64,000 bases of DNA, from NCBI GenBank assembly GCA_050084515.1, contig CM114271.1:8804001-8868000 (forward strand). Direction: 5' to 3'. Shown piece by piece: positions 1,698-59,942 of the stretch. The notes under the pieces were generated by a model. It searched no databases. It was not told where the DNA came from and was given only the letters and a program-made list of their open reading frames with translations. The DNA is from Blasia pusilla. Taxonomy: Eukaryota. Numbering within the stretch: position 1 is the stretch's first letter; the number at the start of each line of letters is the position of its first letter. The translations under genes were made by a program, and so were the position numbers.

Positions 1698-2231
1698 CTA
1701 AATGTCGGAATCCAACAGGTTGCAACTCTTGCAACCCGTCGGAATCCGATGGGTTGCATCCCTTGCAAGCAAGCACACCACAACAAAAGAAGAATCTTGA
1801 CAAGTAATTCCATTCCACCGTGCAACCCATGAGAATCCGACAGGTTGGGAATCCGACAGGTAGTAGGAATCCAACACGTCTTTGAAATACTGTGTTAGAG
1901 AAGAATGGTGTGACGATAATGGGGGAACGAGGAAAAAGTGAAGAAGCATGCCAGAATGCCTGAAAAGTTGGACTAACAGGAAAAGAGTGGGATCACTCAA
2001 GCAGCCAACTTGTCGGAATCTGAAAAGTTGCCTAAAAGGGGTGTAAAATATTGTGACAAGTTGCAACTCGTCAAAATCCGACGGGTTGCAAAATAAACAG
2101 CCTCGAGTAGATAGACCAAAAAAATCGACAAGAACGAAAAAAAATTCACCAAAATTTTACAAAAACTATCATGGTTCAAAAAAATTTGTCATTTATTACA
2201 TCCGAGGGAAGCTCAGAAATGTACATTTGAT

Positions 2232-3070: not shown

Positions 3071-5518
3071 GTGAACAAGCAAGTGGAAAATAATGTCAGC
3101 AAAAAAAAAAAGCTAGTAGACTGCTGGTCTACTCTCAATATACTGACACAATGTGCAACCCGTTGGGATCTGACGGGTTGCTCATTTGGCTAGGCAGAGG
3201 AGCAACTTGTCGCAGTCCAACGGGTTGCTTTTCAACCCGTCCTACTAGTCCATAGTCCGAACTTAGCCTATAGGCCTGATAGAACAGCAACATGTTGGAG
3301 TCCGACGGGTTATTTTACAACTCTAAGTGGATTCTTTGACGGGTTACAAGGTCTACCTTGGATTGGACACTTTCCACCATACGGAAAAACTGCCCTCACG
3401 GTTTGCACGGTTCATTGGACAAGAGAAATTGATGCAAGATCCCCCCGCAACTCGGTTACCTCCAAAAGGGAAAGCGAGGTGAGGTGCCTTTCCAACCCGT
3501 CACCGTCCCCAACGGGTTGCCATAGGAAATCCATATGAGGTCTCGTGGATCCCGACTCCAATCTAATAGGTCGCAACCCGCAAGGGATACCTATTGAAAA
3601 CCTATTGTTTGGTAGGTGAGATTGTCTAATGGAATGGATTCAATCCTGTTGCAACCTGTCAGAGTCCGATGGGTTGCAAATTTTGGGACTCAGACACATG
3701 GGTTGCAAAGCCACAGAGTATCGTCTTCCGAGAGCAACTTGCAACCCGTCAGAGTCCGTTGGGTTGAACGAAGTTATCAATAGGTATCCCTTGCGGGTTG
3801 CAACCTGTGAGGTTGGAGTCGGGATCCACGAGAATAACCAATCTCACCTACCAAACAATATCTTGTCACTCATATTCTGCCAGGAGAATAACGGTCACTG
3901 TTCTCATTCTCATTCCCATTCTTATTCTTATTCTTATTCTCATTCTCCACCCGGTGGAATAATCTGGGAATGGATAATTATGTGAAACTCACTTGTGGTA
4001 GTCATCTTGCGGCCCTTCCTCAATCAGAAATAATTCGACCGCAAGCTCGTGAGTCTTACATACCAATGGATGAAATTTTCCTCTCAGTGCGATTTCTTCT
4101 CCAAATTGGAACAATCTTTGTTTCCAAGGATGTTAGGATGGACGATACGGAGGAGGTTGTACGTGAGACAATCTAGCTAGTGATAGCAGACTGTAAAGTA
4201 TGGAATCTTCTACCTCTGGAAAATGGTCAATAGAGAGTTTATGGCTCGCCTCTGAATTCCTCTGTTTCCCAAGTAGACAGTCCGGAATTTCCTAGTGCAC
4301 CGAGCTCTATGTTTGCTACTCCCAGCTCAGTAGATCCGGCATCGACTCCAACTTCACACGTTCATAACAATGTTGTACTTCCTGAAGATATTTCGGATGT
4401 TGTCAACCTCAGTGGATGTGTCGGACACCAACTGGGCCCTGTGTGTGCCTACTCATTCCTCTTGCGAGTATCAGGCAATAGTTTGTTGTCGCCTCTGCCC
4501 TTTAAAATGTTCAAGCATATTCTTGTCGACGAGCTACTGCCCACGTACGATGGTACTTGCATTTTTTAGTTGCCTCCACTTGTTGGTCCTACTCACAAGA
4601 AAGATGGAGGACGCTTGAAGGGTATGGACAAAAAGTCTGATTGTCATCGATGGTGCAAGCTTCTACGGACTAGTGCTTCAATTCCAGATGGTCCTTGGAT
4701 TATTTCTCGCCTCCAATGCGTTGGAGCCCTGGAGTGTGGAAGTCCAGGCTTCCCGTATCTAGAGCGAAATGGGCCAGTCAATATTCGCAATTCCCCCCAA
4801 AGAATGCAGAAAATCCATGAGGTCAATGCGACCATACCACTTGGAGGCCATCGATGTCCTCATTGTCAGGCATCCCCTTTCTGCGTTGGAGCGTGTCCTG
4901 CATACATATTTTTCATTGTGCACGACTTCAGTTCTACGTCCGAGTACACCAAGCTGGCAGTTCATGTTGGCTCCCACATTCATCCTGTTACCGGTGCAAT
5001 TCAGAGACACATCAAGGAGGATATGGCAAAGAAAGTGGCCGAGGTATCTAGAAACTCTCCGAGATCAAAGTCCAGAGTGATCAAGTTAACAACAGCATCA
5101 CAAATTTGTGCACAACTGCTTGGAATCTTTGGGCAAGGCGATATCACGGCTGCTGAGGAGAAACAACTATGGGAAAATCTAGCATATCTCGCTGATCCTG
5201 AATGCTTCCAGAATTTGGTGCGTCAAATACGAATACTTAATGGAAAGACAGCCGAAATGGATGTCATTGCTAGAATCAAGGCCAACTCCAGATTTCCATT
5301 TATATAGAGATGGCACTTCATGGGCCAGGGAGGCGAAGGATCCAGGGCTTATGTCTTCAAAATGTCAACTACAAGGCCGTCAAGTGGCCTCAATCTTATA
5401 GATCGAATGCCGGAAGGGGAAAATCTTTACGGCAGCTGGGTAAGCTTTGATATTTGCTACAGAGTGTTGAATGGATGGTTGACCATGGGTGCTCACGTTT
5501 ACGACCATGTGGAGAAGG

Positions 5519-6185
5519 GGAGGAGCGGTAAGAGGAGAGGAAGAGAGGAGAGAGGAGAGAGGAAGATATTGGCAACCCCTAGGGCTCTTTTGGTTTAAAG
5601 AGAGTTTTCGACAAGTTGGAGAGAGGAAAGTTTTGACAATTTGAAAAGGCAAATTTTTTCCAAAAAAAATTGGTGGTGAGAAAAAATTTTGAAAATTTTT
5701 TCCTAATTTTTTTTACCTTTTCAACCCGTCAAAATCCAACGGGTTGCAATTTTTTTTGGTTTTTTTAATGGTTGAGGAAAAAAATTCATTTTTTGGGGTT
5801 TTTTTAACGTTTGGAACTCGTCGGACTCTAACCGGTTGCTTTTGAGGCCAAAAAGCAACCTATTAGAGTGCGACGGGTCGCCATGATGCCTAGAAAGCAA
5901 TCCATCGAAGTCCGACGGGTTTCTAATGTTAAAAAAACCCAAAAAAATGAAATTTTTTCCTTGACCAAAAAGAAAAGAAAAGAAACCAAAAAATTGCAAC
6001 CCATCGGATTCTGACGGGTTGCACTAAGTTTCCTCTCTTCAAAAAAATCTCCAAAAAAATTACTCACTTATTATCCATAATCTTCATATTTTTTGAAGAG
6101 AGTTTCAGTTTTTTTTTCCTTTTGTGCCTTTTTTTTTAAGAGAGACTCTCCTCTCTTCCTCTCTCTTGCTAGAATACTAGCCCCC
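5519..6185 (-). mobile_element. Non-autonomous MULE derivative inserted in the transposase gene
   Basis: 9-bp TSD with one mismatch: TGGAGAAGG (5510-5518) / TAGAGAAGG (6186-6194). Removing it restores the frame HVEKG-LKTLFVCEVKAED. It carries the 27-bp palindromes. Confidence 0.85.
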
Positions 6186-6764
6186 TAGAGAAGGGACTCA
6201 AAACTTTATTTGTCTGTGAGGTAAAAGCAGAAGACGTTGGCAGTTTGAAGATGTGTTGGTTACTCTTATTGGAGGTGGTGAAAGAAAACAAAAGGCCACC
6301 TCCGGAAATTTATGGACTCATGGCGGACAATGCACAACCTGGGTGGATTGCTATGAGGGAAGTGTTCTGGGGGGGAGAGGTTCAACCAGAGAGGGGAAAG
6401 GTCGGATGCTTTCTATTGGCAATTGTCTGTGACCCGATACACCAAATCTTGCATCAAGGAGAATAAGAGGACAGAGCATGTCACTCTACTCCAACGCTGC
6501 AAGGACATCAAAACCTTGAAACAGGCCATGGAGTGCCAAGAAGAACTTCATGGATGGTGGAGGAAGCATGCAATTGAGGGGAAGTACAAAAAGTTGTGCT
6601 CTTGGCTCAATTGGGGGACTGTAAGAATGAGACAATGGGGAAACTTCATGCGGCAGGTGAGTTCAGTATTTTATCCTTTTTAGCTCATGTTGAGAATTGT
6701 TTGAAAAGTTGCAACTCAAGTTGAGAAGCGTGGGCACTATAGGGATTTCAAACCGCAGAAACCA

Positions 6765-7640
6765 AGCAACCCGTTGGATGCAATGGGTTTCCTGAGTGTG
6801 CAACCCGTCGGAAACTGATAGGTTGCATTAAGAATATTTATGCAACCCGTCGAAACTCGACTGGTTGCATGAGTGTCACACCCGTCGGAGCACGACATGA
6901 TGCATGAGGAATGTTTGTGCAACCCGTCCGAACCCGATTGGTTGCATGAGTGTGAAACTTGTCGAGTCCCGACGGGTTGCAAGTTGCATATATACAAGGC
7001 CTGCAAATAGTTCGACTCGAATGGATTGCAAGCCGCAAGGCTACGAGTTAACTTGGTCTGCAACCCTTTGGATTCCGACAAGTTGCGTATGTCTGAAACG
7101 TGTCGGATTCCCACTAGTTGCGTCTGTATGCGACTCCTCGTATTCTGACAAGTTGCAGCTGTCTCCAAGTCCTCGCATCCAGACACGTTGCATCAGTGCA
7201 AGTTAACTGGAACCCGTCAAATTCCAATAGTTTCAAAGCTTCATGTGTGCAAGCCAACGGAATCCGACACGTTGCACAAGGATTTTCGAGACCGGACCGG
7301 TCTGCTTCTCACAACCCGTCTAATTCCGACGGGTTGCAGTAGCTGGTTCTTAGGTGCTAGGGTGTAGTAAAAGGTTACTGGGACATTCCAGGGATGTCTT
7401 TGACTTGCAATCTATTTCAAGTCAGAGGCTGGAAAATGTATGTGAGACCCGTCGGATTTTGATGACTTGCATTGGGATCTTCCAGCCCGGAGTGGCCAAA
7501 GATACTTGCAACCCGTCTGAATCCGACCGGTTGCACTAGGTGGTTCATGGGTGTTGCAACACGTCGGAAACCGACAGGTTGAAGAGTCATTCATGGGATG
7601 CCTCCGACTTGTTACCCGTCTGGTTCTGACACGTTGCTTT
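6765..7640. repeat. Dense intronic array of the 27-bp palindrome GCAACCCGTCGGA-N-TCCGACGGGTTGC
   Basis: Many degenerate copies separated by unrelated spacers. The same motif occurs at 1702-2090, 3155-3765, 5722-6022 and 9350-9378. Confidence 0.9.
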
Positions 7641-9579
7641 TTTCTTTGCTCATAGAGCTATTTTCGTTCCCTTCTCACATTGTCATCGTTGCACGGATTG
7701 AACATTCATGAAAATGCCCTCTAGCCCAACCAAGTGGAGCAGAAAGTGTTCATTCCTCCTCGAGGTCGTCACAAGCATGCCAAATAATTTCACTTGTGGA
7801 GGTATGCTAACAAGACCAGCAAGAGCAATGCTACAGTGTGCAGCATCCCATATCTTCCTCACAAAAGGCATAACAAAGGAAAGGGGCCTTCGATTTACGA
7901 GCTCTATGTCAGGGCGGCTGTGACATCTGGTGATGAGAAACTCTATGTGGAAGCCTTCAATCGGTGCGTAGCAGGAACTCCCCTCAAGCAAGATTTCCAC
8001 ATTGGTGGGGATATTCGTGGGCCTGTTTCAAGACGTCCCATACAGATGGTGGTAGAGCAGTTCGAGTGAGACTCGTGGAGACCAGATAAGTATCTCGACT
8101 TCAGGCAAGTGAAGAGGAAGCATTGAGGAACAAACCTAGTGATTGATTTGGATGAAGAAATTATGCTGCCTAGGTATTCAGAGACCCTAGATTGCTCCCA
8201 AATCCGAGATGCAGTAACTTCTCCAAAATCAAATCATGTTTTATTTCAAAAGCCCTCCGTTGCTGGAAGTTCGCAACATCCGGTCTTATGATAGTTCAAC
8301 AGTATGGGATTCTGGTCATTGAGGTGGATTGCAACCTCAAAAGGTGACATATATATCGGAGCAACCCTGGAAGTGGACTCACTTGCAGGGGAGGATCTGT
8401 TGGCATTAAGAGAGCATGCGGCACTTTCCTAAATAAGAACTGTACAAGGATTGGACAACCACTGCTTGGATTTTGGGGACTCAAAACCTTTGATCGTTTC
8501 AGGAGGACTGAGGATCAATTGAAGCACTTCTTCTGCCCAAATGAATCCTGGGCTTTCCGAAAGTCTTATTCGGCTGCCATTGGAGCTCCAGGGAATACCC
8601 CCACGATTTGCCCCATTTCCGCAGTTACGAATTGCACTCATGAGGAAGTGGACAATCTTACAAGTGCCGGTTTTAGACTTGTAGACGGAGGAACTTCAGA
8701 GCATGTTTGGATTACATTGACCTTCGCATTTCTTATTCAACCCAAGATTGATGTTAACATGTACCCGAAGAAGGTGGATGATCTCAATCCAATATTTATG
8801 TTTGAGTCTAGAAATGGGGTGAAGAGAAACAGAATGTGCAGGCCAACGGTGGAGAGAGCAAAGCAAATCGCATTAGCTTGGGAGGCAAACATGGAAATCA
8901 TTGCCACAAAAGATGTCTAGATTGGCAATGGAATAGGAAGGATATATTTGGTCAGGAACAACACTGTAAATTCAAGTGTCACATCTGTTGCTTTCCCACA
9001 TGTTCCTATGATGACTTTGTCCAAAGAGAGACAAGTAGAAAAAGGTATTTCCCTTGTAAGCACATGTACTATGTGTTGCTTGTACTTTTAAGAGAGTCGG
9101 AGGTAGGAGTAGGAATCCACCAACCAATTCTGTCCCTCAAAGAAGTGCGAAGTATTTTAAACAAACCACTTTGAGGATGCAAAATGAGGTCTTAGATTGT
9201 ACTTTCATTTTCCAGAACCTTCACTTTGAGCTTGAACTCTATTCAGCCGAGGGCAAATGAGAGATTTTTTCCTGACCTTGGATGGAAAAAGTGATTTGTT
9301 CCACATTTATGTTCCAATGATTTTTCAGTTTTTTTAATTTTGTGCAAATTGCAACCCGTCGGATTCAGATGGGTTGCCAAAATATGGAAGAGAAAAAAAA
9401 AATTTGGGAGTGCCTAAGCACTGAGAACAAAAGTGCAAAGGAATTCAAAAAAAAATTTCCTCTCTTCAACCCAACGGAAACTCTCTTCAAATCACAGAAA
9501 AATCTCTTCAAAAAAAAGTATCTCTTTGGGTTGAAGGTAGTTTCCTCTCTTCTCTCTCCTCTCTTCTTACCGCTCCTCT

Positions 9580-10918
9580 TATTGATAAAGGACTGTCTTG
9601 GACTAGTGAGAATGGTGTAAAAGAGGGAAAAGATTGGAAAATAAGTTAGAAGAAGAAGCGCGGGTGCTTCGTAAGAAAGACCGCAGTAAGAATAGTAGTG
9701 AAGACTGTCAATGAAGACAGGGGAAGGCTTCTTTGTAAAGAAGACTGAAAATAGTCTTTGCACGAAGATTGGGTACAAAGAACGAAGAGCGAAGACCCAA
9801 GAGCAAAGACTAAGAACTCTAAGAAGGAAGAGGATGAAGCAAAAGAAGTCAAAGAGTCTTTCGGAAGCGGAAAAGTGTATTAAGAATAGGGAGAGAAAGA
9901 TAGGAAATGTTTTAAAGGCAACGGAGTGAAAGAAAGTAGAAAGGAGGACTCTTTGCCGCAGCAGAAGGATAAGAATCTTCACGCAAAGATAAGAGCGCGA
10001 AGATAGGACTGGGAAGCGGAGACTGCGAAGAGCGCGAAGACTGTGAAGACTGAACCGTTGCGGTAGTTTCATAAGCCGAAATTGGAGCGGCGTAACAGTT
10101 AAGAAGGAGCGGAAATGAATCGCCAACACAACCAACCGACTTAGGAAGATGGAGGGTTGGACAATCTGAATGGAGAGAGTAGGAGTAGCAATTAGAATTC
10201 TAGATTAGAATAGGAAGATCAATCAGAGTTATAAAAGGCTATTCAAAGAGTAAATCAGAAGAAGAAGGGATCATTCCCTTATGTCTTGAATTCCCCAATA
10301 CTGTTCCGAGTATCTTGAGTTTTTCTCAGCAATCTTGATAAGTGTGTAAGAAGTTTTTTTGAGGGATGATCCAAGCTGAAGAGTCTTTTACTTTCTAAAG
10401 CTTGTAATACTTTTCTAGTTCTTTCCACTCTTTGATGCAAAAGAAGACTCTTCTCTCATTCTTTCTGATGTGCGAAATTGAATGTGGATCCTATGGGGCT
10501 ACAGTAGAGATGAGAGTTGAGTCTTGTAGTTTCAGAATTCCAGAAGATAATCAGGAACAAGCGTAGGAAAGTTGTTAGACAGTGAGTAACCTGCCATGAC
10601 AGATTTAGTTCTGAAAGTGCGGTGAGCCGCCATTCTTGAGGTCTCTTTGAGGTCTTCGTGGAGCTTTGTTATTCAAGATTCACAAGAGTTTTCATGTGCA
10701 CTTGTGAAGAGTCTTTTCCAAGAGGGAAGAAAAACCTTTTATTCTTTGGTACTTGTAAGACAGTGTCGTTGTAGTTAGTGAAGCATTTTAGTGAAGAAAG
10801 AGTTTATTCTTGATATTCTTTATAAAACCTCTCTTTACTCAGGAAATACTGATCTCTTGGGAATGAACTTTATACTTTGTGATAGAAAGAGTATCTTTTT
10901 CCTAAAGTTGTACATTAC
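9580..10918. mobile_element. LTR (same family as 13182-14473), left part missing at the MULE junction
   Basis: Collinear with 13350-14473 and ends TTGTACATTACA. It abuts the integrase fragment at 10919. Confidence 0.8.
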
Positions 10919-24360: not shown

Positions 24361-25147
24361 TTGTGACCACCGTCTATCGTAGCTGCTCCATGCGACATCA
24401 GAGCATTTTGAACTTGGATTTGTAATACAATCGAGAGTGTTTTTTGTAACTTGGCTGCTAGGAAGCAGCCAAGTCCATTCATTCAGACATGCAATCCATC
24501 GGAATCGGATAGGTTGCAAGACATGCTAATAGAAAATTGCGTATGTGCTAGGAAGCAACCAGGTCCATTCTTTCAGACATGCAACCGGTCGGAATCCAAC
24601 AAGTTGCAAGGATTTTCTGGTTTAGGATATCTTGCAGTCCGTCGGACTCCGACAGGTTGCAAGACTGTACTGTTTGTCTGGTTTAGGTTATCTTGCAACC
24701 CGTCGGATTCCAACAGGTTGCAAGACTGGACTGCCTGCCAAAAGTTACTCTCGTAGGCAGTTGGAGTGGTTTGCAACCCTTCAGAATCCGACGGGTTGCG
24801 AACCACTCCAACCAAAGATTAGAGTCCAAGAGAGCACGCACACCACATCAAAAGAATAGCAAAAAAACAAATGGGAAAAGGTTGCAGTGAAAAGACATTG
24901 CAGTAAAGACATTTTCAGGAAAAAGGTTGCAGTGAAAAGACATTAGAGTTAAAAGACATTTTTAGGAAAACCATCGGTTCTTGATGGTTTGCAACAGCAG
25001 AATAACCTCACCCCAATTTTGGAATCTGATATCTAAAATAACATCAAACCATGAGCGTGAAGAGAATTGGGTGCAAAACATCGATTTCTTTATTTAAAAC
25101 CATTTGCAAATCGGTTATTTACACTTGATTTCCTGAACAAGAAAATC

Positions 25148-28100
25148 TAGTCTATGATCTCTTCAACCTCGTCATCTACAAAAATGTTCCTAACTCTTTC
25201 CGGTTCCTCTATAAGTGACTTCTCTGGGCTAGTCAGTGGCTCCTCTACACAATCGTAGATTGGAATTGAGAAGGAAAGAGGATCTGAGAGCCTTGTCCCC
25301 TTAGGAACCCCGTATTGGTCCCATGTGACCCGAGAAAAGTCCCAACGCCTGCCCGGACTGGTGATTTTGAAGGTTCTGCAAAGGGAAACCCATCGATATC
25401 AATATTTGCTCCTCCGCTTCAACTATCACATGTCAACTCCAAAGGGCTTGAAATCCAAGGCACCTACACTCACTCGTCATCATCCAAAAATTCCTCCAAA
25501 ATCACCTGTGGCCTTGCCCTTCTCATTTTTGGGATCACTAGTAGTGATGATGGCATCACAACCAATGGCTTTAATGTAGGTTCATTAATCCATGGAGGCA
25601 ACTTGTAAACGCCCATCAACCTTTCGTTGTCAGCCTTTGCCTCCCGGAAAAGTGAAAACAAGTTGTTCCGGGACTCAAGACAGAGAATTTTTTCGCCACT
25701 CTACCAAGCAACTCTAACACTAGCCCCGTAAAGACCCACCAAATCGAGCACCAAATCACCAAGCCTCGAACATAGCTCCATCAGGGTCTGCATGAGGGTG
25801 GGTGTTTTTCCCTCCCTCCAAGCACTGGCACTCCTTCCTCAAGGACAATTCCCGAGGATGAATTGTAGAGGATGTTGAGTGTGAATCCATCGGAGCCAGG
25901 ATCAACAAGATCTTGTATCTCAAAAACTTGGAACCTATGCTCGAGTCTGACAAAAAAATAGACGTAGGAGTATTCGATCTACGCAGAACATAACCGCAAA
26001 AATCAGGTAAGAATCGAGGAACAAGTCTTCCAGGAGCAACTCGACAGATTCTGACGGGTTGCAAATGTCAGATGTCACAAATGGAAAGTGCGGTTGCGAA
26101 ATTGGGGCCCATGCAACCCATCAAAATCCGACGGGTTACTCTCTAGCTCAGAATATGAGTGGATGTGCAACCCGTTGGGTTCCAACGGGTTGCACAAGTC
26201 GTGTCAGGGTCTATATGCAACCCCGCGGAATCCGACGAGTTGCTCTCCATCTCTCTGAATAGGAATGGATGTGCAACCCGTCGGAATTGGACGGGTTGCT
26301 TGACATCCCAGAACCCAATGGGAGGTTCTTGCAAGTTGTCGGACTCTAACAGGTTGCACAACCACTCCCGTTCTCAGGTGTGTCAAGCAACCCGTCGGAT
26401 CCGGACGGGTTGCACATAGATCCTAACATGGACTGTGCAACCCTTCAAAGTCCGATGGGTTGTAGAATTTTTTTTTTTAAAGCAGAAATATTAGATGACA
26501 TGTTTTTCAAACTTATCCGGAGTTGATTTGTAGGCGACCTCAGGGGGTAGTCATTCTTCACTACCCAAGACTGCACTCTTTGCCACTTCAACAATCGCTT
26601 GACGTACTGCAAGTTGAAGAGCTCATCTTCACTAGCATCAATCAAAACCAGGAAACATCCCTTGTCATTCAGATATGCGTTGGCAAAGGAGAACATCAAC
26701 GCGATCTGGTTATATGTGAAGGGAATGTTCCAATCCAAGACTGTGTTGCGTGGGTTATTGTCCCACAATCTAAATCCCGGCGGTAGATTTGCAATTAGGA
26801 GGTCAAGTGCAACTTCCTCAGATACCCCATTGACGGTCCATGGGGCATTGACGGTCCATGGGGCATGGCGGTTTGGGGGAAGCTTTCGTCCTAAGACAGT
26901 CAGCTTCTCCAAGGCAGGGGCGGACTCTTGTGTAGAGAACTTGACCAGTTCTTCCAGCATTGATGTCTGATGTAGCGGGATGGTGATTTTGGAGGCTTAG
27001 TCCCTGTGCTTCCCCAAGGATGTAGAAGTATAGATTACATTCTTGCCCCCCCCCCCTTTCGGAGGAACCGGGTGTCTCCCTCTTTCGCTTCTTGCAAGGA
27101 TTCTATTTCGGGGCCTCCCGTTGCTACTTGTTGCGCCTTGATGATCCTCCCTCAGATGGTCTCGGGCCCTTCACCTTGGATTTCAACCCCGTAGTGGACT
27201 TGTCTTTTGCTGTAACAGTTTTAGACAAAATCTCTGCTACCTCAATCGCTTGTACCTGGGCATCTCCTTCAAAGTACTCCTCGGTCTTGAAAATTTTTGG
27301 GATGTCCTCCTCGCCAGCAGCTAGCGCATTATACAAGTCTCGCATTGGTGGATCAGTAAGTTCTTTGGGGTCATTGAAGTCCAACCAGATCGGACAATTC
27401 ATGACTTCCCAAGGGCCCATGTCGAGTGCCATCTTCACCTCGTACATGGAGAATCCTTTGCCATCCGGAGTATCAGCCCATATCTTGAACGCAGCTAGGA
27501 ACTTCCTCCATGTTCTTGCATTAACACAAAAAGTCAAGAACGTGAACACCATCCTCTATGCAGCTTGATGGCGGGATGAATCAACAGCCTGTTCGAGAAG
27601 CTCCTTCTTCTTTTTGGCGAAGTTCCATTTCTTCGAGTCGCCAATCTCCTTGTCGACATCCCCCTATGGCAGATCTGGTTCTTGAATATCTTCTAGAACC
27701 AGGGGTTCTTTTCCGGCTTATCCCGGATGTCATTCAACCACAATTTGTATTTCTCCCCCGATTTGAGGCTAGTCGCTTTCAGAATTAGTTGAAGGCACTC
27801 AATCATGGACTTTCCTAACAAGCGCAAGGCATCCCAGAAGGACCATTCTCGTAGCCACTGGGATATAACTGGGTCAAAAATCCCCAGGGGATGGTGTGCC
27901 AATTTTTTCTCTGCCTCGATTCCCTCCAGACTCGTCTTCATGAGTCAGATCGGCCTGAATTTTGAAATCCCCGAGAGGGCAAACCATACGAACTCGATCC
28001 AAAGACACCTTCTCTACAATGCATCCATGGGGATCCTCGTCCCTCTTTCGCTACCGCTTGATTATGGCCTTCAACTCTTTGTAAAAGTCAGACCCAAGCT

Positions 28101-29576
28101 CGGGGTTCAGCACGGCGATGTACAACTGCATCTTGTTGGCAAGGTACTTGTTCGTTGCCAACACTGCAACCTGTTTGAACTTCACTCTCTTAGAAGCTGA
28201 AACATTCCCTCTCCGCTCTAGCTCCATTTTCGTGCTTCTTTTCACTGCCTGGATTTTTTACGAGCATAGAATTATTACATCTGCATCTTGGGAAATGAAC
28301 TTGTTGGCCCCAGTCTTCTTCGTGATTTGTGCTCCTTTTGCGAGCATCTCATCCACCAACTCCTCTCGAAGGAATCCTTTGTATTGCAACGGGTGCGTTG
28401 TCATCAACTTCCTCACTTGGTCGCATTCCTAGATCCAGTGATGGGTCACATTCCCTTATGACATGATGCTGCAAGGAACAATGAGAAGTAAGAATGTTTA
28501 CAACCTGCAACCCGTCGGTTTCCGACGGGTTGGAAATAGACAGCAACAAAAAAATAACACAAGAGTTGCTTGCAACCCATTGGAGTCCGACGGGTTGCTC
28601 CACCAGCTTCCTCAGTGCAATTCTTCGGAAACCGACGAGTTGCATCTGGGTTGCGTCCAATCGAAGGAGATGTTTTGCAACCTGTCAGAGTCTGACGGGT
28701 TGCACCACCAATTGATTACGATCCTAAATGCAATCCATCAGAAACCGATAGGTTGCATCCGGGTTGCGTTAAGCTATTTCCCAATTATAATATTACATAT
28801 TTTGCTACTCGTCAGAGTCCAACGGGTTGAAAAAGAAGCACCCTATAGCAACTTGTGGTGCAAAATCGTAAGAACTTATCTCGAGAAATTTAATCCGCAT
28901 CCCGTTGGAGTCTGACAGGTTGCACATACTCTAGTGGAGACGTCCCAATATGACTGGCCCTGCAACCCGTCGGACTCCGCCGAGTTTCCAGGCAACTCAA
29001 ACCAGGTCGTCTTTGCCTCTAGGAAATAAAGCGACAATCCATCGAAGTCTGATGGATTGCATATTAGGAAGGGAAGTCTTTCTCTTGCAACCCGTCCGAT
29101 TTTGACAGGTTTCCAATCTCATTAACATGTTGTTATTTTAATACAAAAGAACCAACCCGTCGGAGTCCGACGGGTTGAAGACTTAACCTATTTGCAAATA
29201 AAGTTTCAGGATACTTACGTGTTCATTGAGTTTGACAGGTTGCACATACTCCAGTGGAGACGTCCCAGTATGACTGGCCCTGCAACCCGTCGGACTCCAA
29301 CGGGTTGCCAGGCAACTCAAACCACGTCGTCTTTGCATCTAGGAAATGAACCCACAATCCGTCGAAGTCCGATGGATTCCATATTAGGCAAGGAAGTCTT
29401 TCTCTTGCAAGCTGTCGGATTCTGACACGTATCTGATCTCGTTAACGAGTTGTTATTTTAATACAAAAGAACCAACCCGTCAGATTCCGACAAGTTGAAG
29501 ACGTAACCTATTCGCAAATAAAGTTTGAGGATACTTACGTGTTCATTGAGTGAATGGCCATCTCCACTGTGGCCAT
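25148..29576 (-). pseudogene. Multi-exon accessory gene with a beta-class N4C/N6A DNA methyltransferase-like domain (N6_N4_Mtase fold)
   Basis: Putative exons ~29576-29539, 28468-26520, 25978-25474 and ~25400-25148. Motifs in beta order: LDLLIANLPPG (IV), ANAYLNDKGCFLVL, QSWVVKN, IEYSYVYFFVR, REK..LMQTLMELCSRLGDLVLDLVGLYGASVRVAW*SGEKILCLE (X-I-II). Contains stops and frameshifts. Confidence 0.65.
28913..29551. repeat. Tandem duplication, ~320-bp unit x2
   Basis: TGACAGGTTGCACATACTC starts at 28913 and 29233. Both units end ...GATACTTACGTGTTCATTGAGT. Confidence 0.85.
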
Positions 29577-39611: not shown

Positions 39612-42600
39612 ACCAATATCGAGTTGTGCCTAGTCCCGCGCTTCTCGTCTAACAATGAACATGCGCGAGCATCGTCTCCCTTAGCCGCGCCTGGCTGTCC
39701 AAACTCCGCGGCCTCCTCCCGCTTCCCCTGCCGTCCCACCTCCACCTCGCTTCTCCGCTCAGGTTCTCCCGCTTTGCGTTCTCTGCTTACTCCCGAGCTT
39801 TGCATGAACTCTACTTCCGCGTTCACGGAATTTACTCCGTGTAACCTATGCTCTTACCACTGTTTACGGCCTCCACAAGTAGGTTAAAATCAAATGCTAC
39901 TAACCGGTGCTCGTGCGATGCACGGTGAAACCGGCCCCGTCACCCTTAACTTAATTGCTACCTCCGGTTGAACTTGTCACGTTTCAGCGCCCTGACTCTA
40001 GTATAGGTTAGAAATGAGACACATCCTTGTTTAGCAATACTAGTGGGCACTTGGGAGAGAGGGACAAATCTATAGTATTAAAAGAGGAGAGGGTCTTGGC
40101 CAGGAGCTCCGCGGCATGACACGTGTCCCTCAAGAGACGCCCACCGCATGACACATGTCTCTCACCACGAAATCACGGCAAGACACATCTCATCTGTAGA
40201 TTCATTTTTCATCGATCCGATCTTGTAGTGCGCCTACTCTCCTTGAACGTTAATCTTGTTGTTGCGGAAACGTGAGTTCAGTAGGTCACGCTCTCAACGT
40301 TGATCTGCATCCAAACACGCACTCTGGTTAGTCGGGTCTTGTATCAATCAGCGGGCTAACTTTCCGAGTTCTCGTCTCGGTCTCTCATTGTCGCGCCCCT
40401 ACTCTCCTTGAACGTCAATCTTTATTGTTGCGGAAGCGTACGTTCAGTAGGATACGATCTCATCGCCGATCTGCACTCAAACACACACTCTCGTTAGTCG
40501 GGTCTGGGCCAACCAGCGTTCCAACCCACCAAGTTCTCAACTCGGCGTCTCATCAAGCTCAACCTTCCTTACTTCCTAGTTTCCAAAACATGGCAAGTCC
40601 TTCAAGACTTGGAACAGACTTCCTGATTAGTCCAGGAACCTAAAACGGCACTTGCGTGCCTAGCGATCCCAACTCTTCAACGGACCTCGTGTGAGTTCCA
40701 AACCGAGACCCAAGTAATTGAGTCGCGGGGTGAAATCCAAGAGGGATGTCTAAAATCGCCTCCATAGACTTGGTTTAGGTTTTCCAACCCAACCCCAAAC
40801 TCTCGATCCGTTCCATGCCCTTGCGCCGCCCCGTGGCGCGCAAAGTGGGGTTCGAGTTCCAAGCACTCTTGGAGACCTTCCCCCTTACTAGTACTTCTGG
40901 GATTCTCGAATAACCCCCCATCTTTGGAAAAGGAGGGTCGGGCCCTTCATTGTGGCCCTCAACCCGACTCTACTTACAGTTGTTTCCAGATTGTTTCCCA
41001 GCTGTTGCTTATGCGTTTGCAAAGATCTTTAGTGCGTTTGAAGTGTCTTTCCATAAGCCTTCTAACGCACCCTTTTTCAATCCAAACGCATCTTGGCGCT
41101 AAAAGTTATGGCCATAAATACAATCGGAAAGTCTCAAACGCTAGTGGCGTCCCAAATCCGGATTCCTTCCTTTGGCAACCCACTTTCTAGACTCAACTCC
41201 TTTCAAGTCTTGTTCCGCGTTTGGTACAGATTTCTCAGTCGCGACCACAACATCTGAAATGCGAAGCCTCAATTGCGTCCCGTCTCTTGTCTCTTCTTTG
41301 AGACCACTCCAACGCGCAAACCATCTTAGCGTGAGCCCGCTAATGTTCCGATGTTCCGCTTTGGCACTCGTTTGGTCATGAGGGTTGCGAAACTCACCCC
41401 TCTTTAGAGGTTGATGCCCTCATCAACGCAAACCTTTGTTATGTCAAGTTTCTTGGGCAGCCTACTCCTTGACATTGAATTGCGTTCTGGTGGCTAACCC
41501 GCAATTTCTCTTAGTCTACAGTTGTCGCTTTGCATCACTTAGAATTATTAGCCTCTCCTCTTTGATAAGCCTGGACTCGTTCCAAAGAACTAACCTATCA
41601 AATAAGCTAACTAAGTGTGCAACCTTAGACTCTTCTGGCTCATTCTTGTAAACATCACACATGTTTACCTAGTCTACAAATCGTACTATTATTGGGTCGC
41701 TCCCATATTCGACTTAGGCGCGTCACTAAGTTTACTTATGTAGCCACAAGTAAGATCACCCCAAGCCCCAAGACAGATTCATCTGCCCCACAAACGCTAG
41801 GGCGAGCCCAAGTGTAATCCAACACAAGATCCTGTTCCGAGTGCTTATCCACATACGAGCTCTCACCTCAAATATTCCTTGTCTATCCTCTTGACTTACA
41901 TCCTAAGCCTATGATGAACGACTCATAGCCATGCACTACCACATACAAATTGCAATCAACTCTGGCATCGAATCTCCAAATCCATGCATTCCTTTATTGC
42001 AACACTAGCATGTTCTAGTTACAACGGTTGTCGTGCGAATCCACATCGTCATACAACATACATCGGTGACATACCATACTCACATACATACATAACATAG
42101 ACGAGAGCATCCACAAACATAAGTGTACCACAATTGAAATCCGTGAAAGACCTACTGTCATAAAACACGTATAGAATCACATACAATCGAGCCAAACCCA
42201 CTCCACGATGGGAGAATCTAGGTCGAAGCTTGCGGGAAACACCATAGCCAAGAGCTCTACTCACTACCAAGGCTAACTCCCAACGCAACAGGCTCAACTC
42301 AAAGAATCGACGTTTTCTTTGGGTGCACTCCATACTATATCCTCCAACCTAAGAGCGGGCCCCTTGGGAAAGTCACCCCCAACTGAGTAACCCCCAACCC
42401 TATGTATGAAACCGCATCTCTACCTAGCCACTACGGTCCTACATAAGGTATGGCCTCTACTAGCACACTATACTCTACGACATAATCCGTATGGTCATGA
42501 CAGCTGTCATGCGAATCCACATCGTCATACAACATACATCGCTGACATACCATACTCACATACATACATAACATAGACGAGAGCATCCACAAGCATAAGT

Positions 42601-42784: not shown

Positions 42785-45700
42785 TAAATACATCGAGGAC
42801 AAACCCACCTTCCAGTAGGAACAACATCCATACGTGGAGTCAAACACATCATGTGTCAACCCCTAGAACATCGATCACACACCAACATACGGGCTGCTTT
42901 ACCAGCAGACCCATACAACATGCACCTCAAGCTAGCACATATCATGGCTAAGTTTGGGTCAACAGTACCATCCACATTTGGAAGATGACATGATGCACAA
43001 TTACGCACATGGTCCTTCCAAAAAACTCCATCACGACCCTCCAACATGAGAACTCCAGAAGCTAACACCTCGCTCACTCGTAAAATAGTGCGGTCTGCCG
43101 TCACATCCAACGTTGTCGGTGCAATCTGCTGCAATTAGACATAGTCCCCCACATGGAACCTACGAATCGATGGTCGATAACCTCCACCCCGAATGGTTGC
43201 ATACCGCAAGGTATCTCTATGTTGAGCAATGGCAAGATTCTCAAAGGTTGTTGGCATAACTCTCCGAAAGAGCTCTGCCCGCTGAGAACACACCCTCATC
43301 CACATCTCTGGGTCATCAAGGTTCACCACCTCACTAGACTCCCAAAGAATTGATGTTGGCAAGTCTGGATCTCGGCCGTATAACAGAAAATAAGGTGAGA
43401 AGGAAGCCAAGGATGCTTGGCGACTGAACCTATACCCCATGGCTAACCATGGCAATTGAATATCCCTATCTCCAAGATGCCCCTTTTGTAGGCCATACTT
43501 GCGCAATGCCCTCTTCACCGTCTGAACCACACACTCAGCCAAACCATCTGCCTATGGATGATCTCGAGACGTGGTCTGATGATCAATCAATGCCTTGTCA
43601 TACAAGACCTGAAACTCACCCTGAAACTCTCTCCTCTGGTCGGTCAACACTTCATCTGGTGCACCAAAATGACTAAGCACTCTATCAAGAAACGCGTACG
43701 TCGTTCCCTCACTTGCCTTCTCAGGTAATGCCACCAACTCAATCCACTTGGAGAAGTGCTCCACCATCACCTACACATATCGATGATGTCGTACAGTCAA
43801 CGGTAACGGTCCCGCAAAGTCCACACTCCAACAGTAACCCAACCCCATAATAGGCAAGGGGTGTAACTGTGGTGTAGGGGTATTGAATGATGCCCTCACC
43901 CGGTCACAAACCATACAACCTGACACCAACTGCTGCACTTGAGTATGCATGCCACGCCACCAATAATGACCAAGGAGTAAGCTATACGTACACTTTACCC
44001 CAAAATGTCCCAACTCCTCATAGGCATGTTGCACAATGCGCTCTCTCTGAGCCAAATGCGGCACTACTCGTACTCTACCATCCTCCCACACACGGAGAAT
44101 ATGTGTTCCCTCCAATCGATACCTCTTAGCACGTTGAAGAACACGGTCTCGCTCCTTGGCACTCACTATGCCGGCACCCTACTCGTCCAGTAGGGAACTC
44201 CAACACCAACGCATCATCATGAATATCACGCTGATCCGCACGCCATCTCCAACCTTAGGATCTCAAGGTGGCCATCTACCCCTCGACTAGAGTAAGATGT
44301 CATGTGGTCCTCCATACTAGAGTCCATCCCTAACCAACATAAAAAGGGGGATGCATGCCAACCTGGAACCATCTCCTCATCAACCTCGCCATGCCATCTA
44401 GCCCTTGTTGCATCCTCTTGGCTAGTACATGGGTTCCTTCTCAATCCATCAGCATCAAGGTTGGCAACTCCAAGTCTATGTACCACCTGAAAGCCATACT
44501 CCTGTAAGATAAGAGCCCACTGTGCAAGCTTCCCTGTAAGCTTGTCAGACTCTATCAACCATTTGAGCGGCTGATGATCGGTAACAAGGGTAAACTGTGT
44601 GCCAAACAAGTAACACCTAAAGTGTGCCACAGCCCACACTACTGCCAAACACTCCCCCTCGTATGAACTATAGCGCGACTCCGCTGCATTATTCGAACGA
44701 CTTGCATAGGCCACCACAAACTCCATATGCTCATCATCATGTTATGTCAACACCGCTCCAAGTCCCAACCTACTCCAATCAGTGTGTAACTGAAATGGGC
44801 ACCCTTTGATAGGTCTCCAGTGCCACTCTTGATCAGATTTCAGAAATTGGTTCAAAGGCTTTGCCATAGCACTAAATCCCTTCACACACATCCAATAGTA
44901 GTTTGCCAATCCCATGAATGCCCGAACTCTACTCACATCTACCGGACGCGGAATAAGTGCAATATCCTCCACCTTTGCTTGCTGAACTCCCAAACCACCT
45001 GGATAGATCACATGACCCAAATACTCAACATCCTCATTGAAGAACTTACACTTTCTTGGATGCAAACGTAGATCATGAGCTTTCAACGGCTCAAACACCA
45101 TCTGCAAATGTATCTGATGCTCCTCCACCGTGTTACTGAACACCAAGATATCATCAATGTAACACCGAACAAAATCCAACCCCGCTAGGATCCTGTCCAT
45201 CACTCACTGAAACTCGGCAGGTGCATTCTTCAACCCAAAGGGTAAGAATTTCCACCGGTACAAACAATCCTTGCTATGAGAGTTGACATCCCAAAATGCT
45301 GTCTTGGCCTTGTCACTCTCCCGAATCGGCAATTGATGGTATCATGCCCGAAGATCCAAAGTACTGAAAATCTTTGCGTATCCCACCACATCAAAGATCT
45401 CCTCAGGTGTAGGCATGGCATACCTATCGGCCTTGGTTTGCCGATTGATAGGACGGTAATCTCCACATATCCGCCTATCCGTATAGTTGCCATGCATATC
45501 CTTTTTAGCAGGCATGACAATGGCTGATGCATACTCTCCATGGGAGAACTCCACTAATCCAGCCTTCAAAAGGTCCAACGTCCTACTCTGAATCATGTCC
45601 CTCTCCATATCACTATATCGGTAGGGACGACGGAAGATTGGAGTATCACTAGCCAAATCAATCCGTATACCGGGTCCAACCAGAGCACCCAACTCCTTCA

Positions 45701-45840
45701 TGCTAAAGGCAAAACAACTCCTATAAGCACGTAGGAACTGTGTCAAGCATCGTTTCTCACCTCCCGTAAGCTTGGGCCCAAGTAATGGCTCCCAAGTCTC
45801 CTCCATTGGCACACTAGAGGGAGAGGACGATGCCATTGGC
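42785..45840 (-). pseudogene. RT, RNase H, integrase and C-terminal PHD finger of the nested element
   Basis: RICGDYRPIN, CYIDDILV, YEGECLAVVWAV..TDHQPL, HFGVK..CMVC, SVDFAGP..TDQ, then CML.GS..MLVCDRCSRG*HMMCLTP..WVCPRC. Confidence 0.9.
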
Positions 45841-46089
45841 TGCTACGCAACCCCCTCACAAGATGGTACACCCTTAGCTACACCATCATCTGAGCAAATA
45901 ACTCCTCCACCAGCATGAGCAACCAACTCCACATGCCCAGCCATTACATCCCATTTACTCCAAGGATGCAAAATACTACTCTCCTCGCCCCCAGCCGATG
46001 CCTCTACCGTCCCGGTAGCCATCGAGCTCATTACAAGGGGTGGAAGAACCATCGACATAGTCCGAAGTCGACGCTGCTCAGCCATACCA

Positions 46090-47040
46090 AGACTCAAAAT
46101 CCAAGTCAAACAATTCAGGTCCATGGCCTGACCCAACACATGACCTCGTGAAGCCTCATAAATGGAAGAAACCGATGTCACACCAATAGAAAATCCCATC
46201 GCACGCTCTCTCTCATCAGCGTTAGGCTCCACCAACTGTCGCACATGAGAATCCCATACAAGCCCGGGACCACCTTCCCTGTAGGCATGTGACGAGGGAA
46301 AACTCACAAGTGTGGGGAGTGCCATCCTAGGATGGCCCACACGGTTCACCACTGCCATGGGTGACCGATCAATAACCCTCACCACCAGAGAAAGTCGCCC
46401 AGTATCCAAGATACTATCCATTGTAAGGCAAGGTTCCCGTTGCACTGCATCATATGCTCAACGTAGAACCTCCCTAGGCAACAAGTTTGTCCACCACAAG
46501 CATGGGCGATGTGCACACGAGCCAACTCGCGCTGCATCCAACAACACCGCTGGTCCAATCCAAGACCACACCTCATGAACACTCGCCATCATCCGGGACC
46601 GAGTGTCACCCAACAATGGAACATTCTCCAGAATGTAAGCTGGAGCACGTGCCTGATGAACCTGAAGATGTCATAACACCGTAACATCTCCCAAAACAAT
46701 CGAGACCTAGGGTCGTGTAATCCCTCACCACGACCAGCATGTGTATGACCCTGACATGGCCATCTAGCAATCACCAAATCCACAGGACCAACCCTCTCAA
46801 GGTCTTGTGCCCCCAACAATGCAATGTGTGACGGCAAAGCACGCTGGTACCCACGAATAGCCGATGGCGGCAAAAACTCAGGATATCTCCGCATCAACTA
46901 ACCAATATGTCGGGATGAGACTCTCTGGGCCGTCTCATCTTGCTCCACATACACGTATCTCCGCACAGGAATACCAGCCTGCAACACTATAGCCAAAACA
47001 GTGCTAATCCCACCAAAGAGATCTAACACACAAATGGCCT
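46090..47040 (-). pseudogene. DNMT3-like C5-cytosine DNA methyltransferase domain within pol
   Basis: Motif I VLDLFGGI; II RYVYVEQD; IV GPVDLVIARWPCQG; VI YILENVP; VIII DAARVGSCAHRPCLWWTNL; IX-X ERERAMGF...RGHVLGQAM. Has a stop at ~46898 and frameshifts. Confidence 0.92.
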
Positions 47041-47459
47041 CCGGCGGATACTGCCATACAATGGGTGTAGTATCCAAAGGGGATAACCCAACTGGACCAC
47101 AAGTAGGAGTCCGCCGTGGGGCCTCCTCTTCCTCGTGAGGTATAACATCCTCACACCAAGCCTCATGCACTAGGCGATCAGCCTCCTGCCGTAGTGCACC
47201 GCCTGAACTCCAAAGTGGCACATCCAACGATGAGGATGCCATTGCTGCAAAACTAGGGAATTCCTCTACCTCCTCATGCACAGGAGAATCCATAGCAGAA
47301 ACATTACCCTCCAAAAAGTCTCCTATCCAAGTGACTACTCCACTAAAACCAGCCACATATGCTAACACTGTTGGCATATGGAAGACCCTCCTGGTCGAGC
47401 CCCATAAATAAATCTCACAGGAACTTGGCTCATACGTCCATCCTTGGACTACCAACCAG

Positions 47460-49930
47460 GTCTATAAGACGCTGTCTCAATCCAGTAATCCATCTGAAAA
47501 CCCATTGGGTACAATACTGCTCCTCCAACTAGTACATCATACGACTCGGCTGATGTGACCACTGCAGGTACTCCCAATCGGGAGCTATCAATCGCATGAT
47601 CTGGTCTCAACTATACAGAAAACTTCTCCCGTGTCATGAATTGAGACCTATCATTGGCTCCTCCAAGTGATGTTTGAATCTGGAATGGGCAAGGCTCAAG
47701 CTCTGACCTCCGAATACCCAAACCAATACATGCCGCCTTTCCCAACATCAAAGGTTGGGCACCAGAGTCTAACAAGACTATATTTGGTCTATACAATTGT
47801 CATGTAGGACTCACCAATCGGAATATCCCACTCCGGTTGTCCAACATACATACACCATGTGCAAGCCTCTCACAATCAATGGCTGGCCGGGCTGGTGATG
47901 CATCCATCTTCACGGCTGCTGCCTGCCAAGTAGCACTGGTACTCAATGCTACACCTGACATAGAGGGCCGCTCCACCGCAACACCCTCATCCACCTCAGC
48001 ACGTGTAGCAGTAATACCTCCACTTTCACACAGCGTGGCTGCTAGCTGAAATACAGGAGCTAAGTCAACTCCTAAAGCCATTAGTTCCGTGGCTGAAAAA
48101 ATGGGGATCCTAACATTGAAGTTGCCATCCGCAATACTGCACTGGATGCTGCATTCGTGTCTACTACACGCGATGTAGATGCCTCAGTCTCCACTATCGG
48201 CTCAATAGGCTACGTAGGAACCATGGATGGAGTTCTAAGCACCTCCGACAACAAGAATGATTGGGGAAGCCTAGCCTGCCTCCCAGCCTCACCCCTCTAT
48301 GGGTCCAACTCCAAAGTAACACCACGTGGCTCTGACGCTCGAGTGGCTCCTCTCGTAACTGCAGCTGATGCCTCAACCTGTGCTGCACTCACCATATAAG
48401 AGAGATCATCCCCTCCATAAGAGGTGGAAGCCCCTGCTCCCGAACCTGATCTATGCTGGATACCAGCCATAGTAGCCAACTTTTGCTCCAACTGCTCAAT
48501 CCTGGCAGCCATAGCCGACTCTGTCGTAGTGGTAGGGGTAGCCACCGTAGGCTCTCCAACCACTGGTCCACCTCTACCACCCCTACCACCTCTACCACCT
48601 CGGCCTCTCGGAGCTACTCCACCACGTCCGCGGCCTGATCTCAACTCTGGATGAAGATCAAAGCAATGCTCTCAAGGATGGCCTGGTCACCCACAATGAT
48701 CACACTGAGTTGGGGCCGACTGAGGCCCATCCTCCAAAGTCCGTCTCCCATCCTCTTGGGGATAAAACTTCCTAACATGATCACCTCCACATGTCCAACA
48801 TGATTGTCCTTGCTGCGGGGCAACAAATGAAGGAAATGGTCTCTACGCAAGTGTCCCTCTAGGACCTGATTGAGGTCGTGTGTACCCCCCACGACTCCCA
48901 CTACTACTACCACCACCACTACTACGAGACTGTGAGGTGGGTTGCTGAACACGAGAAGTAGTAGTTGTATCCCTATAGAATGCGGATGTCAACACTCTCT
49001 CCTTCACCATGTTAAGCTCAATCTTCTCAGATAGAGCAAACACATGGGTCAATGTGGGTGAATCATCACTCATAAGAGTAGCATCACTTACCCTGCGGCG
49101 CAACTCTCTGTCCAAGATCCCATACCAAAACTGGACTGCCTAAGCCTCAGTCACACCTTGGGTAACTGAAATCAAGTGTCACATACGAATGTATGCCTCA
49201 CGAAGCCTCTCACCAGTCTTTCGCTCAAATTCTTGAAGACTCCTCAACTTCTCTATCTTCACTCCCTAATAGTTCTTCTTTAACCTCTTGAAGAACTGTG
49301 CAACTGGGTTGAACGATGGTAGGGCACTAGTACCTCCACTAGTACCCCCACTGGTACCTCCATGGGTACCTCCACTGGTACCCCCACTCCGGCTTGTACT
49401 CGTACCACTCAACGTCGGGTTGGCTGGCATAGTAGGAGCACTACTACCAATACCACCATGGGTGATAGACACATAGCCTGGAGACCAATATTATCTCCAC
49501 GCCTCAATCTCAGCAACATGGTCCTTCCTAAACTCATGGTAATCATCCATGGGTGGTCCTCCAAGTCTTTGAAACAACCCTTCAAGCCAAGAAGGGTGTA
49601 AACAACGTGGCGTTCCGCAACATCTGCATATCACACCACGTATCAAACTCCTGCATGAAGTCCTCCAACTCAATGGTGCCCACTGCACCCTAGTATCGTC
49701 GTGGGCCCTTCATGGCCCCATATATTCCGTCCATGTCCCAAATCAATGGAGATGCAACACTCGATAACAACGTAGAAGACTCGTTGTTTGGAACACTCTC
49801 GTCCTCCTCTTCATCAACCGTCGGAAGTGGAAAAGGTAGCCGATACCTCAATCCACTCTCTGTAAAACCACCACGGTCCCCAACCATACCACCAGACAGC
49901 TCCGTGATGACCAACGCCGATGCCGCACCA
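47460..49930 (-). pseudogene. gag and aspartic protease of the nested element
   Basis: Zinc knuckle CDHCG*PGHP*EHCFDLHPELR followed by an RGG-rich tract. Protease VLLDSGAQPL. 12-bp repeats encoding GGTS at ~49325-49390. Confidence 0.75.

Positions 49931-59797: not shown

Positions 59798-59942
<145 letters not shown>

Follow-up and report, generated by a model that had tools for sequence, protein, structure and literature searches.

Mobile elements that carry epigenetic enzymes have so far been described for retrotransposons, with C5 cytosine methyltransferases (DNMTs; PMC5890265) and with Dam-type enzymes (10.64898/2026.05.21.726589), as far as the available text of these sources extends. In that text, the C5 or Dam-type domain of such elements (Gypsy-DNMT3, SymbioLINE/DIRS-DNMT, DAM-LTR and DAM-DIRS) lies inside pol and keeps its catalytic residues, and the Gypsy-DNMT3 of Klebsormidium (KnitGypsy-Dnmt3) has a Ka/Ks below 0.2 (PMC5890265). 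Here we describe a decayed gene in a 64,000-nt stretch of the liverwort Blasia pusilla (assembly GCA_050084515.1, contig CM114271.1, positions 8,804,001 to 8,868,000). This stretch is called the window, and all positions below are window positions. The gene belongs to a multi-copy repeat family and encodes a very diverged domain of probable beta-class N6_N4 methyltransferase type. It is present twice, as a full-length copy (copy 2) and as a copy of the 3′ exons only (copy 1), both on the minus strand.

Beta-class domains have been described in eukaryotes. In the available text of the two papers concerned, the Marchantia proteins MpDN4MT1a/b are host writers of N4-methylcytosine (4mC) that have the canonical TSPPY and are proven to be active (10.1101/2021.02.12.428880), and rotifer N4CMT is a 4mC writer of bacterial origin (PMC8885841). 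Like these proteins, the Blasia gene has a putative beta-class-type domain in a eukaryote, and Marchantia is also a liverwort. Unlike them, it has no TSPPY, is multi-copy and lies in transposon repeats, a distinction drawn from published descriptions. With the retrotransposon methyltransferases it shares a methyltransferase-type domain on a mobile element and purifying selection (dN/dS here ~0.14); it differs from them in being a separate, intron-containing gene of a putative cut-and-paste element, of apparent N6_N4 beta class and with a degenerate catalytic loop.

Among DNA transposons, the gene can be likened by description only to MURB of MuDR and VANB/VANC of VANDAL elements, each a lineage-specific second gene beside the transposase with no Pfam family. 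An anti-silencing or tethering role is proposed for accessory proteins of Mutator-like elements (MULEs) in the available text of PMC12973397. None of MURB, VANB and VANC is described as methyltransferase-like in the texts searched, and the part of PMC6446971 that was available makes no mention of methyltransferase, methylase, Marchantia or bryophyt. A full-text literature search, with subscription-only papers and supplementary tables outside its reach, turned up no DNA transposon that carries an N6_N4-type gene, in agreement with the original prediction made from this DNA, which knew of no such MULE.

Probable kinship to beta-class N6_N4 methyltransferases

A phmmer search with exon A of copy 2 found two proteins at E≤0.001 among 1.84 billion representatives: one of Riccia sorocarpa (P0001; 5.6e-10) and one of Riccia fluitans (P0002; 2.4e-8). 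Both are hypothetical proteins, each in a one-member cluster, ~30% identical to the window gene and with the same long N-terminal extension. Word-based protein searches returned nothing for exon A or for the C half of the domain, and only P0001 itself for P0001; a family profile searched against contigs of metagenomes, prokaryote genomes and viruses gave no relative. By sequence similarity among those 1.84 billion representatives, liverworts are the only lineage with relatives of this gene.

The original prediction had read methyltransferase motifs from spliced minus-strand exons, and all the quoted motifs are on that strand. One open frame of 183 codons (26445-26996) holds LDLLIANLPPG (26775-26807), ANAYLNDKGCFLVL (26643-26684) and SWVVKN (26553-26570). 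A second frame (25781-25978) holds EYSYVYFFVR (25946-25975), and a third (25470-25838) holds the motif X/I stretch (25719-25805) and SGEKILCLE (25674-25700). The long motif I string, however, joined two copies: REKSPALMQTLMELCSRPGDL comes from copy 1 (2829-2891) and VLDLVGLYGAS from copy 2 (~25730), a piece that copy 1 has lost by a 27-bp deletion. If the predicted splice between exons A and B is right, motif IV lies upstream of motif X/I, giving the permuted order IV-VIII before X-I-II-III.

We compared an alignment of the family (three sequences for the N half of the domain, two decayed sequences for the C half) with 11 PF01555 members by hhalign. The reference set consisted of Escherichia coli YhdJ and 10 phage enzymes, the latter picked from a spread of 24 among 783 matching records. 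The two alignments followed one colinear path of 213 columns, with motif IV first and motif I last, at a score of 38.9 (probability 62%, P 7e-5); column shuffles scored 14.1±2.7, and 0 of 100 attained the real score. Taken separately, the N half scored 26.1 (probability 13%) against 12.6±2.1 for its shuffles, and the C half 38.7 (probability 73%) against 13.7±2.4, again with 0 of 100 shuffles reaching the real value in either case. Reversed queries scored 10-15. As a single sequence, YhdJ gave 33.3 with the whole domain and 33.2 with the C half, whereas eight other E. coli class-I methyltransferases (five of the MTS family, PrmA, Dam and RlmL) gave 10-20.5. The 51 open reading frames (ORFs) of at least 120 aa in the window scored 13.1±2.9, and the sole one above 17.6 was a DNMT-like ORF of a retrotransposon, which carries motif I, at 27.7; the method therefore picks up real methyltransferase signal.

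An alignment-free atlas search with residues 372-488 of P0001, corresponding to the N half, returned class-I methyltransferases in 10 of 10 structure entries. Three of the clusters were PF01555 (TM by query 0.62-0.63 with the atlas's own model), leads that lie below the bar of the tool, and the feature matches included UPF0020, MTS and N6_N4_Mtase clusters.

Beta-class enzymes of PF01555 have the same permuted arrangement (a motif IV half, a short variable region, then motifs X-I-II-III), and the spacing around motif VIII and motif X/I matches that of the window gene. The window gene differs in escaping recognition by the Pfam model, in carrying [D/N]-L-P-x in place of DPPY, in its altered glycine loop and in its extensions of 370 residues (N-terminal) and 130 residues (C-terminal); it is also eukaryotic, interrupted by introns and transposon-borne. 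These comparisons bear out the predicted relation to the N6_N4_Mtase family in beta order: as judged from sequence, the kinship is real but very distant. A methyltransferase origin of the domain is highly probable, and its assignment to the beta class (PF01555 type) is likely.

The position of motif IV reads NLPPGF in the window, DLPTHE in P0001 and DLPKGE in P0002. The pattern is [D/N]-L-P-x in all three sequences, two of which come from annotated Riccia proteins, and the catalytic tetrapeptide (D/N/S)-P-P-(Y/F/W) is absent from each. In copy 2, the only copy with motif I, the glycine loop is V-G-L-Y-G instead of F-x-G-x-G. The NLPP and LVGLYG motifs are degenerate, as predicted. In the half that would bind S-adenosylmethionine (SAM), motif X still has its K-x-P, GD-VLD is present, the glycine loop survives in part, and motif II keeps its acidic residue, a glutamate in both copies (CLE, YLE). 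Known amino-methyltransferases need the P-P-aromatic core. Because the core of motif IV is degenerate in three of three sequences, a non-catalytic or altered module is favoured; to judge from these motifs, such a module is more likely than a writer of 4mC or N6-methyladenine (6mA). Writing of these marks, as originally proposed, is unlikely for a family in which all three sequences lack the PP-aromatic core.

Decay of two copies of a repeat-family gene

Residues 30-486 of P0001 are colinear with copy 2 by tblastn, and the C-terminal exons then follow. The match consists of four colinear segments (28137-27991, 27944-27738, 27570-27208 and 26813-26511), two of which contain a stop. Copy 2 carries a 1-bp deletion at ~25805, an in-frame TAG at 25701-25703, TAGs at 28051-28053 and 27556-27558 within the P0001 alignments, and a change of frame between 27991 and 27944. 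In contigs of other genomic copies, from DNA runs, an extra T stands behind 25804 and there is one base fewer at 27986-27989; both frameshifts are therefore private to copy 2. The ATG at the predicted 5′ end (28462-28464) is followed by TAA two codons on, so the start codon is not established. Copy 2 is a pseudogene.

Exon A would end with NQLR at 26517 and exon B would begin at 25978, with the non-canonical donor ATAAGT and the acceptor GTAG/ATC. Across this putative splice, 19 residues separate the W of SWVVKN from the E of EYSY, the same spacing as in YhdJ. Both Riccia gene models end at this junction, reading into the intron. In one other copy, a DNA contig runs straight from 26078 to 26510 and skips 26079-26509, so the palindrome cluster inside the intron (described below) may be an insertion. 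For the last intron (25376-25473), the donors of the two copies are GA/GTGAGT and GA/GTAAGT, the acceptor is CAG/A in both, and the phase is identical. An intron spanning the TAG at 25701-25703 was considered and rejected: the sole GT..AG pair there gives 31 nt and disrupts the downstream frame.

The predicted second copy of the 3′ exons is present: copy 1 is 64.5% identical to copy 2 over 741 nt (blastn), and tblastx carries the match to 3090. In addition to the in-frame deletion that removed its motif I, copy 1 has indels of 2 bp and 5 bp and one premature TAG, and it shares a further TAG with copy 2. It is also a pseudogene. The spliced exons accordingly do not form an open gene in either copy, and the epigenetic effector that had been proposed is not encoded intact in the window.

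Over 218 codons, the two copies differ at 55, 45 and 116 first, second and third positions, respectively. The corresponding values are pN 0.22, pS 0.70 and dN/dS ~0.14, with synonymous sites saturated. These findings indicate that the two lineages diverged under protein-level selection before both died. Despite the synonymous saturation, the same codon is TAG in both copies (25701-25703 in copy 2, about 2800 in copy 1); around it are 11 identical bases (TGGTAGAGTGG), and the following ATTCTCT..CTTGAG is likewise identical. Both copies may have undergone CAG-to-TAG deamination in parallel, gene conversion may have acted, or the stop may be tolerated.

Contigs matching the gene at ≥80% likeness numbered 376, 261, 153 and 129 in four DNA runs, which cover one organism, two samples and two studies; being contigs of DNA, they are silent on expression. 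Most were less than 90% alike, transitions predominated, and some were without the copy 2 frameshift. The gene is a multi-copy repeat family. Summed contig depth was ~390-740 in the bin 25100-25213 and ~150-260 in the bin 28292-28405, far above the rest of the gene, which suggests that other high-copy repeats lie at both ends of the gene.

Two further matches, both on the minus strand, are weak possible relics and were not relied on. One (3578-3622), upstream of copy 1, resembles the last part of exon A (E about 3-4) and lies within an inverted duplication (3541-3601 and 3773-3833, 92% complementary). The other (1563-1601) resembles the N-terminal WLREW motif (E 0.034).

Palindromes and a transposase-like gene

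Both copies stand among short palindromes of the form TGCAACCCGTCGGA-n-TCCGACGGGTTGCA, 27 bp long, perfect or near-perfect and with CG sites inside. The half-site GCAACCCGTCGGA has 71 matches with ≤2 mismatches in the window, versus 0.77 expected: 34 lie around copy 1 and the neighbouring transposase-like gene, 37 lie in 24491-29484 around copy 2, and none lies elsewhere. They make up ~20 full palindromes. These occupy non-coding parts only: copy 2 has them throughout its intron and on either side, copy 1 in its flanks, and the transposase-like gene in its gaps. Single-stranded palindromes fold at -10 to -14 kcal/mol. The exact 27-bp palindrome had no match in metagenome contigs. The cluster 5′ of copy 2 includes a 320-bp tandem duplication (28908-29231 and 29228-29551, 89% identical).

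A decayed transposase-like gene runs divergently from copy 1, as predicted. Its pieces are a putative zinc-finger ORF (4570-5307), DDE-like segments (5308-5505 and 6173-6463) and a SWIM-like segment (8812-9171); the DDE-like strings were read by eye, and the SWIM-like piece is a partial C-x-H string. A repeat block at ~5510-6175, bounded by GA-rich arms and containing the element's own repeats, splits the gene. The atlas clusters nearest to the ORF 4570-5307 are named 'FAR1 domain-containing protein' (0.95, with 178-181 of 256 features in common), and in one nearby cluster GCM is found on 12% of members. The Mutator-like label comes from this one FAR1-like lead together with the motifs read by eye; that copy 1 lies inside a MULE was not confirmed by Pfam or by termini. 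We consider it fairly likely that the element is Mutator-like.

Table 1. Features of the accessory-gene copies and their surroundings, in window positions.
Feature	Position	Strand	Evidence
Copy 2, the full-length but decayed accessory gene	25147-28257	-	tblastn segments to P0001 and ORF map
End of exon A, N half of the methyltransferase-like domain (motifs IV-VIII), NLPPG at motif IV	26517-26831	-	phmmer, hhalign, atlas
Putative intron between exons A and B, packed with palindrome repeats	25979-26516	-	sequence, palindrome matches at 26050-26463
Exons B-D, C half of the domain: EYSYVYFFVR (motif VIII-like), motif X/I, SGEKILCLE (motif II-like), acidic DDDE end	25474-25978	-	ORFs, copy alignment, hhalign
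Last exon, after GT..AG intron 25376-25473; stop 25147-25149	25147-25375	-	DNA alignment of both copies
Copy 1, 3′ exons only	2230-3092	-	blastn, tblastx, alignment, translations
Extent of the 34 half-sites that surround copy 1 and the transposase-like gene	1711-9377		half-site scan
Palindrome cluster 3′ of copy 2	24491-24799		half-site scan
Palindrome cluster 5′ of copy 2	28507-29484		half-site scan
Decayed transposase-like gene, divergent from copy 1	4234-9171	+	ORFs, atlas

Two interleaved pairs of GA-rich inverted arms (915-1010, 5500-5660, 6080-6175 and 9480-9620) are also present in this region. They include a perfect inverted repeat of 36 nt (923-958 with 6129-6164), and no target-site duplication was seen. 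The arms may mark the ends of elements that are nested or have been rearranged.

Elsewhere in the window, the DNMT-like ORF belongs to a C5 cytosine methyltransferase-like domain (46035-47056, minus strand) upstream of the reverse transcriptase in a Gypsy-type long terminal repeat (LTR) retrotransposon at ~43135-48671, which has RVT_1, RT_RNaseH and Integrase_H2C2 matches. Motifs I, II, IV (PCQ), VI (ENV), VIII and IX/X were read by eye in this domain, and a read-through piece matches PF00145 in Pfam (E 9.8e-5, 22.4 bits versus a cut-off of 22). One TAG, one TGA and one frameshift interrupt it. The element resembles the streptophyte Gypsy-DNMT3 in the available text of PMC5890265. A second Gypsy-type retrotransposon (51854-55984, minus strand) has Retrotrans_gag/Ty3_capsid, RVT_1 and rve matches. 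A near-identical open frame of 140 codons occurs three times on the plus strand (40768-41190, 56748-57170 and 61885-62316), probably as LTRs or another repeat flanking retrotransposons. A long (GA)n/(CT)n microsatellite at 59700-59900 appears as poly-RE/poly-SL among the ORFs.

Possible role of the domain and its significance

The reading that we favour, with moderate confidence, is that the window holds a dead accessory gene that belonged to a multi-copy family of cut-and-paste DNA transposons, probably Mutator-like ones, and whose product contained an inactive methyltransferase-derived module. The intact protein would have had ~800 residues: an N-terminal region of ~370 residues, the domain, and a C-terminal tail of ~130 residues past the aligned domain. 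Its middle part would be a very diverged, circularly permuted N6_N4-type amino-methyltransferase domain of the beta class that presumably no longer methylates exocyclic amino groups. For the element, this domain may act by binding DNA and/or SAM, in the manner of inactive methyltransferase paralogues. METTL14 is such a paralogue, which retains the fold, has a degenerate catalytic tetrapeptide and binds nucleic acid; it belongs to the MT-A70 family and acts on RNA, and the analogy to the window domain would be functional only. An inactive DNA-binding module was the alternative offered by the original prediction. The motifs favour its inactive or altered state, and DNA binding is suggested by analogy. 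A plausible target would be the family's own CG-containing palindromes in introns and flanks. Purifying selection acted on the gene as the family diversified, and both window copies decayed afterwards, mostly by transitions and small indels.

Several results weigh against this reading. Pfam hmmscan at E≤10 assigned no family to eight window fragments, P0001, P0002 or P0003 (the read-through of the C half in the window). A HMMER profile of the same 11 enzymes gave 5.3, 4.2, 3.0 and -1.5 bits for the real sequences, inside the shuffle range (best two of 200 shuffles, 3.8 and 3.0 bits), and a PDB sequence profile search found no methyltransferase. As a single sequence, the N half is at noise in hhalign (16.0, and 13.6 versus YhdJ alone), and the score of 27.7 for the DNMT-like ORF indicates that generic motif I alone can reach the high 20s. 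The family alignment has only three sequences for the N half and two decayed ones for the C half, with motif I in one copy only. AlphaFold2 models were unusable, with mean predicted local distance difference test (pLDDT) values of 33.9 (exon A ORF, 3-row alignment) and 43.6 (P0001, 6-row alignment) and values below 50 in the methyltransferase region. Foldseek gave no match at E≤0.001 with the 33.9 model, a result that carries no meaning because the model is too poor. The Riccia models stop at the exon A-exon B junction, and both halves are not seen in any single intact protein; that junction was placed from DNA, with AT and not GT as its donor. The loss of activity is read from motifs. For the element, Pfam searches of 10 and a further four ORFs or read-throughs of 4234-9171 found no MULE (PF10551), FAR1 or SWIM domain, and neither block has a terminal inverted repeat or target-site duplication, only the interleaved GA-rich arms and internal palindromes. 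The predicted linkage to a transposase holds for one of the two window copies: tblastx found no transposase similarity between 23000 and 31000, and copy 2 may lie in a non-autonomous derivative.

The failed Pfam and HMMER searches, the modest hhalign probabilities, the lack of a confident model and the absence of a Foldseek match for the poor model would fit a methyltransferase likeness due to chance or composition, in a gene for an unrelated lineage-specific transposon protein. We consider this quite unlikely: each half separately exceeds all 100 of its shuffles, both halves pair with their counterparts in PF01555 in the correct order and at the same spacing, YhdJ is preferred over eight other methyltransferases, and the atlas search of the Riccia protein yields only methyltransferases. 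It is very unlikely, in our view, that the gene is a host gene captured in Pack-MULE style, for example a passive fragment of a host beta-class methyltransferase with no role for the element. According to the available text of the sources, MULEs acquire host gene fragments (PMC6446971) and liverworts have host beta-class N4C methyltransferases (10.1101/2021.02.12.428880), and both window copies are dead. Against capture, dN/dS is ~0.14 over the 218 codons even though synonymous sites are saturated, and the intron phase has been kept; selection therefore acted while the gene spread with the repeat family. Moreover, the element's palindromes lie in the intron of the gene and in the flanks of both copies, and its only database relatives are the two Riccia proteins, which share its long N-terminal extension and are ~30% identical.

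An active DNA amino-methyltransferase with an unusual catalytic loop would mark the DNA of the element with 6mA or 4mC, for example at the CG-containing palindromes, and thereby affect silencing or transposition. The SAM-binding half is fairly well preserved, with GD-VLD, K-x-P and, in two of two copies, the glutamate of motif II; this and the purifying selection over the whole C half agree with such an enzyme. There are also precedents in the available text of the sources: eukaryotic beta-class 4mC writers of bacterial origin in Marchantia and rotifers (10.1101/2021.02.12.428880; PMC8885841), and adenine and cytosine methyltransferases borne by retrotransposons, with conserved catalytic pockets (PMC5890265; 10.64898/2026.05.21.726589). 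However, motif IV is [D/N]-L-P-[P/T/K] in all three sequences, with neither a second proline pair nor an aromatic residue, and the motif I loop is V-G-L-Y-G in the sole copy that has it. An active writer is therefore unlikely. A more speculative idea, which we think rather improbable, is that the protein was the cut-and-paste transposon's own beta-class-derived reader or writer of the 27-bp palindromes; it would deposit an unusual amino-methyl mark or shield the sites, so that the element is labelled or protected against host silencing by cytosine methylation. If true, the retrotransposons that carry methyltransferases would have a counterpart among DNA transposons.

If the dead-accessory-gene reading that we favour is correct, the Blasia family would add a third situation to those of the C5 and Dam-type enzymes on retrotransposons and of the host beta-class 4mC writers, which are known in one liverwort and in rotifers. 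In this third case, a DNA transposon of a plant has an accessory gene with introns, which goes back to the N6_N4 beta class and was selected despite a degenerate catalytic loop. Confirmation in intact copies would make it possible to test whether DNA transposons manipulate, or are recognised through, DNA marks other than C5 methylation, and may reveal an evolutionary link between transposon genes and the 4mC machinery of liverworts.

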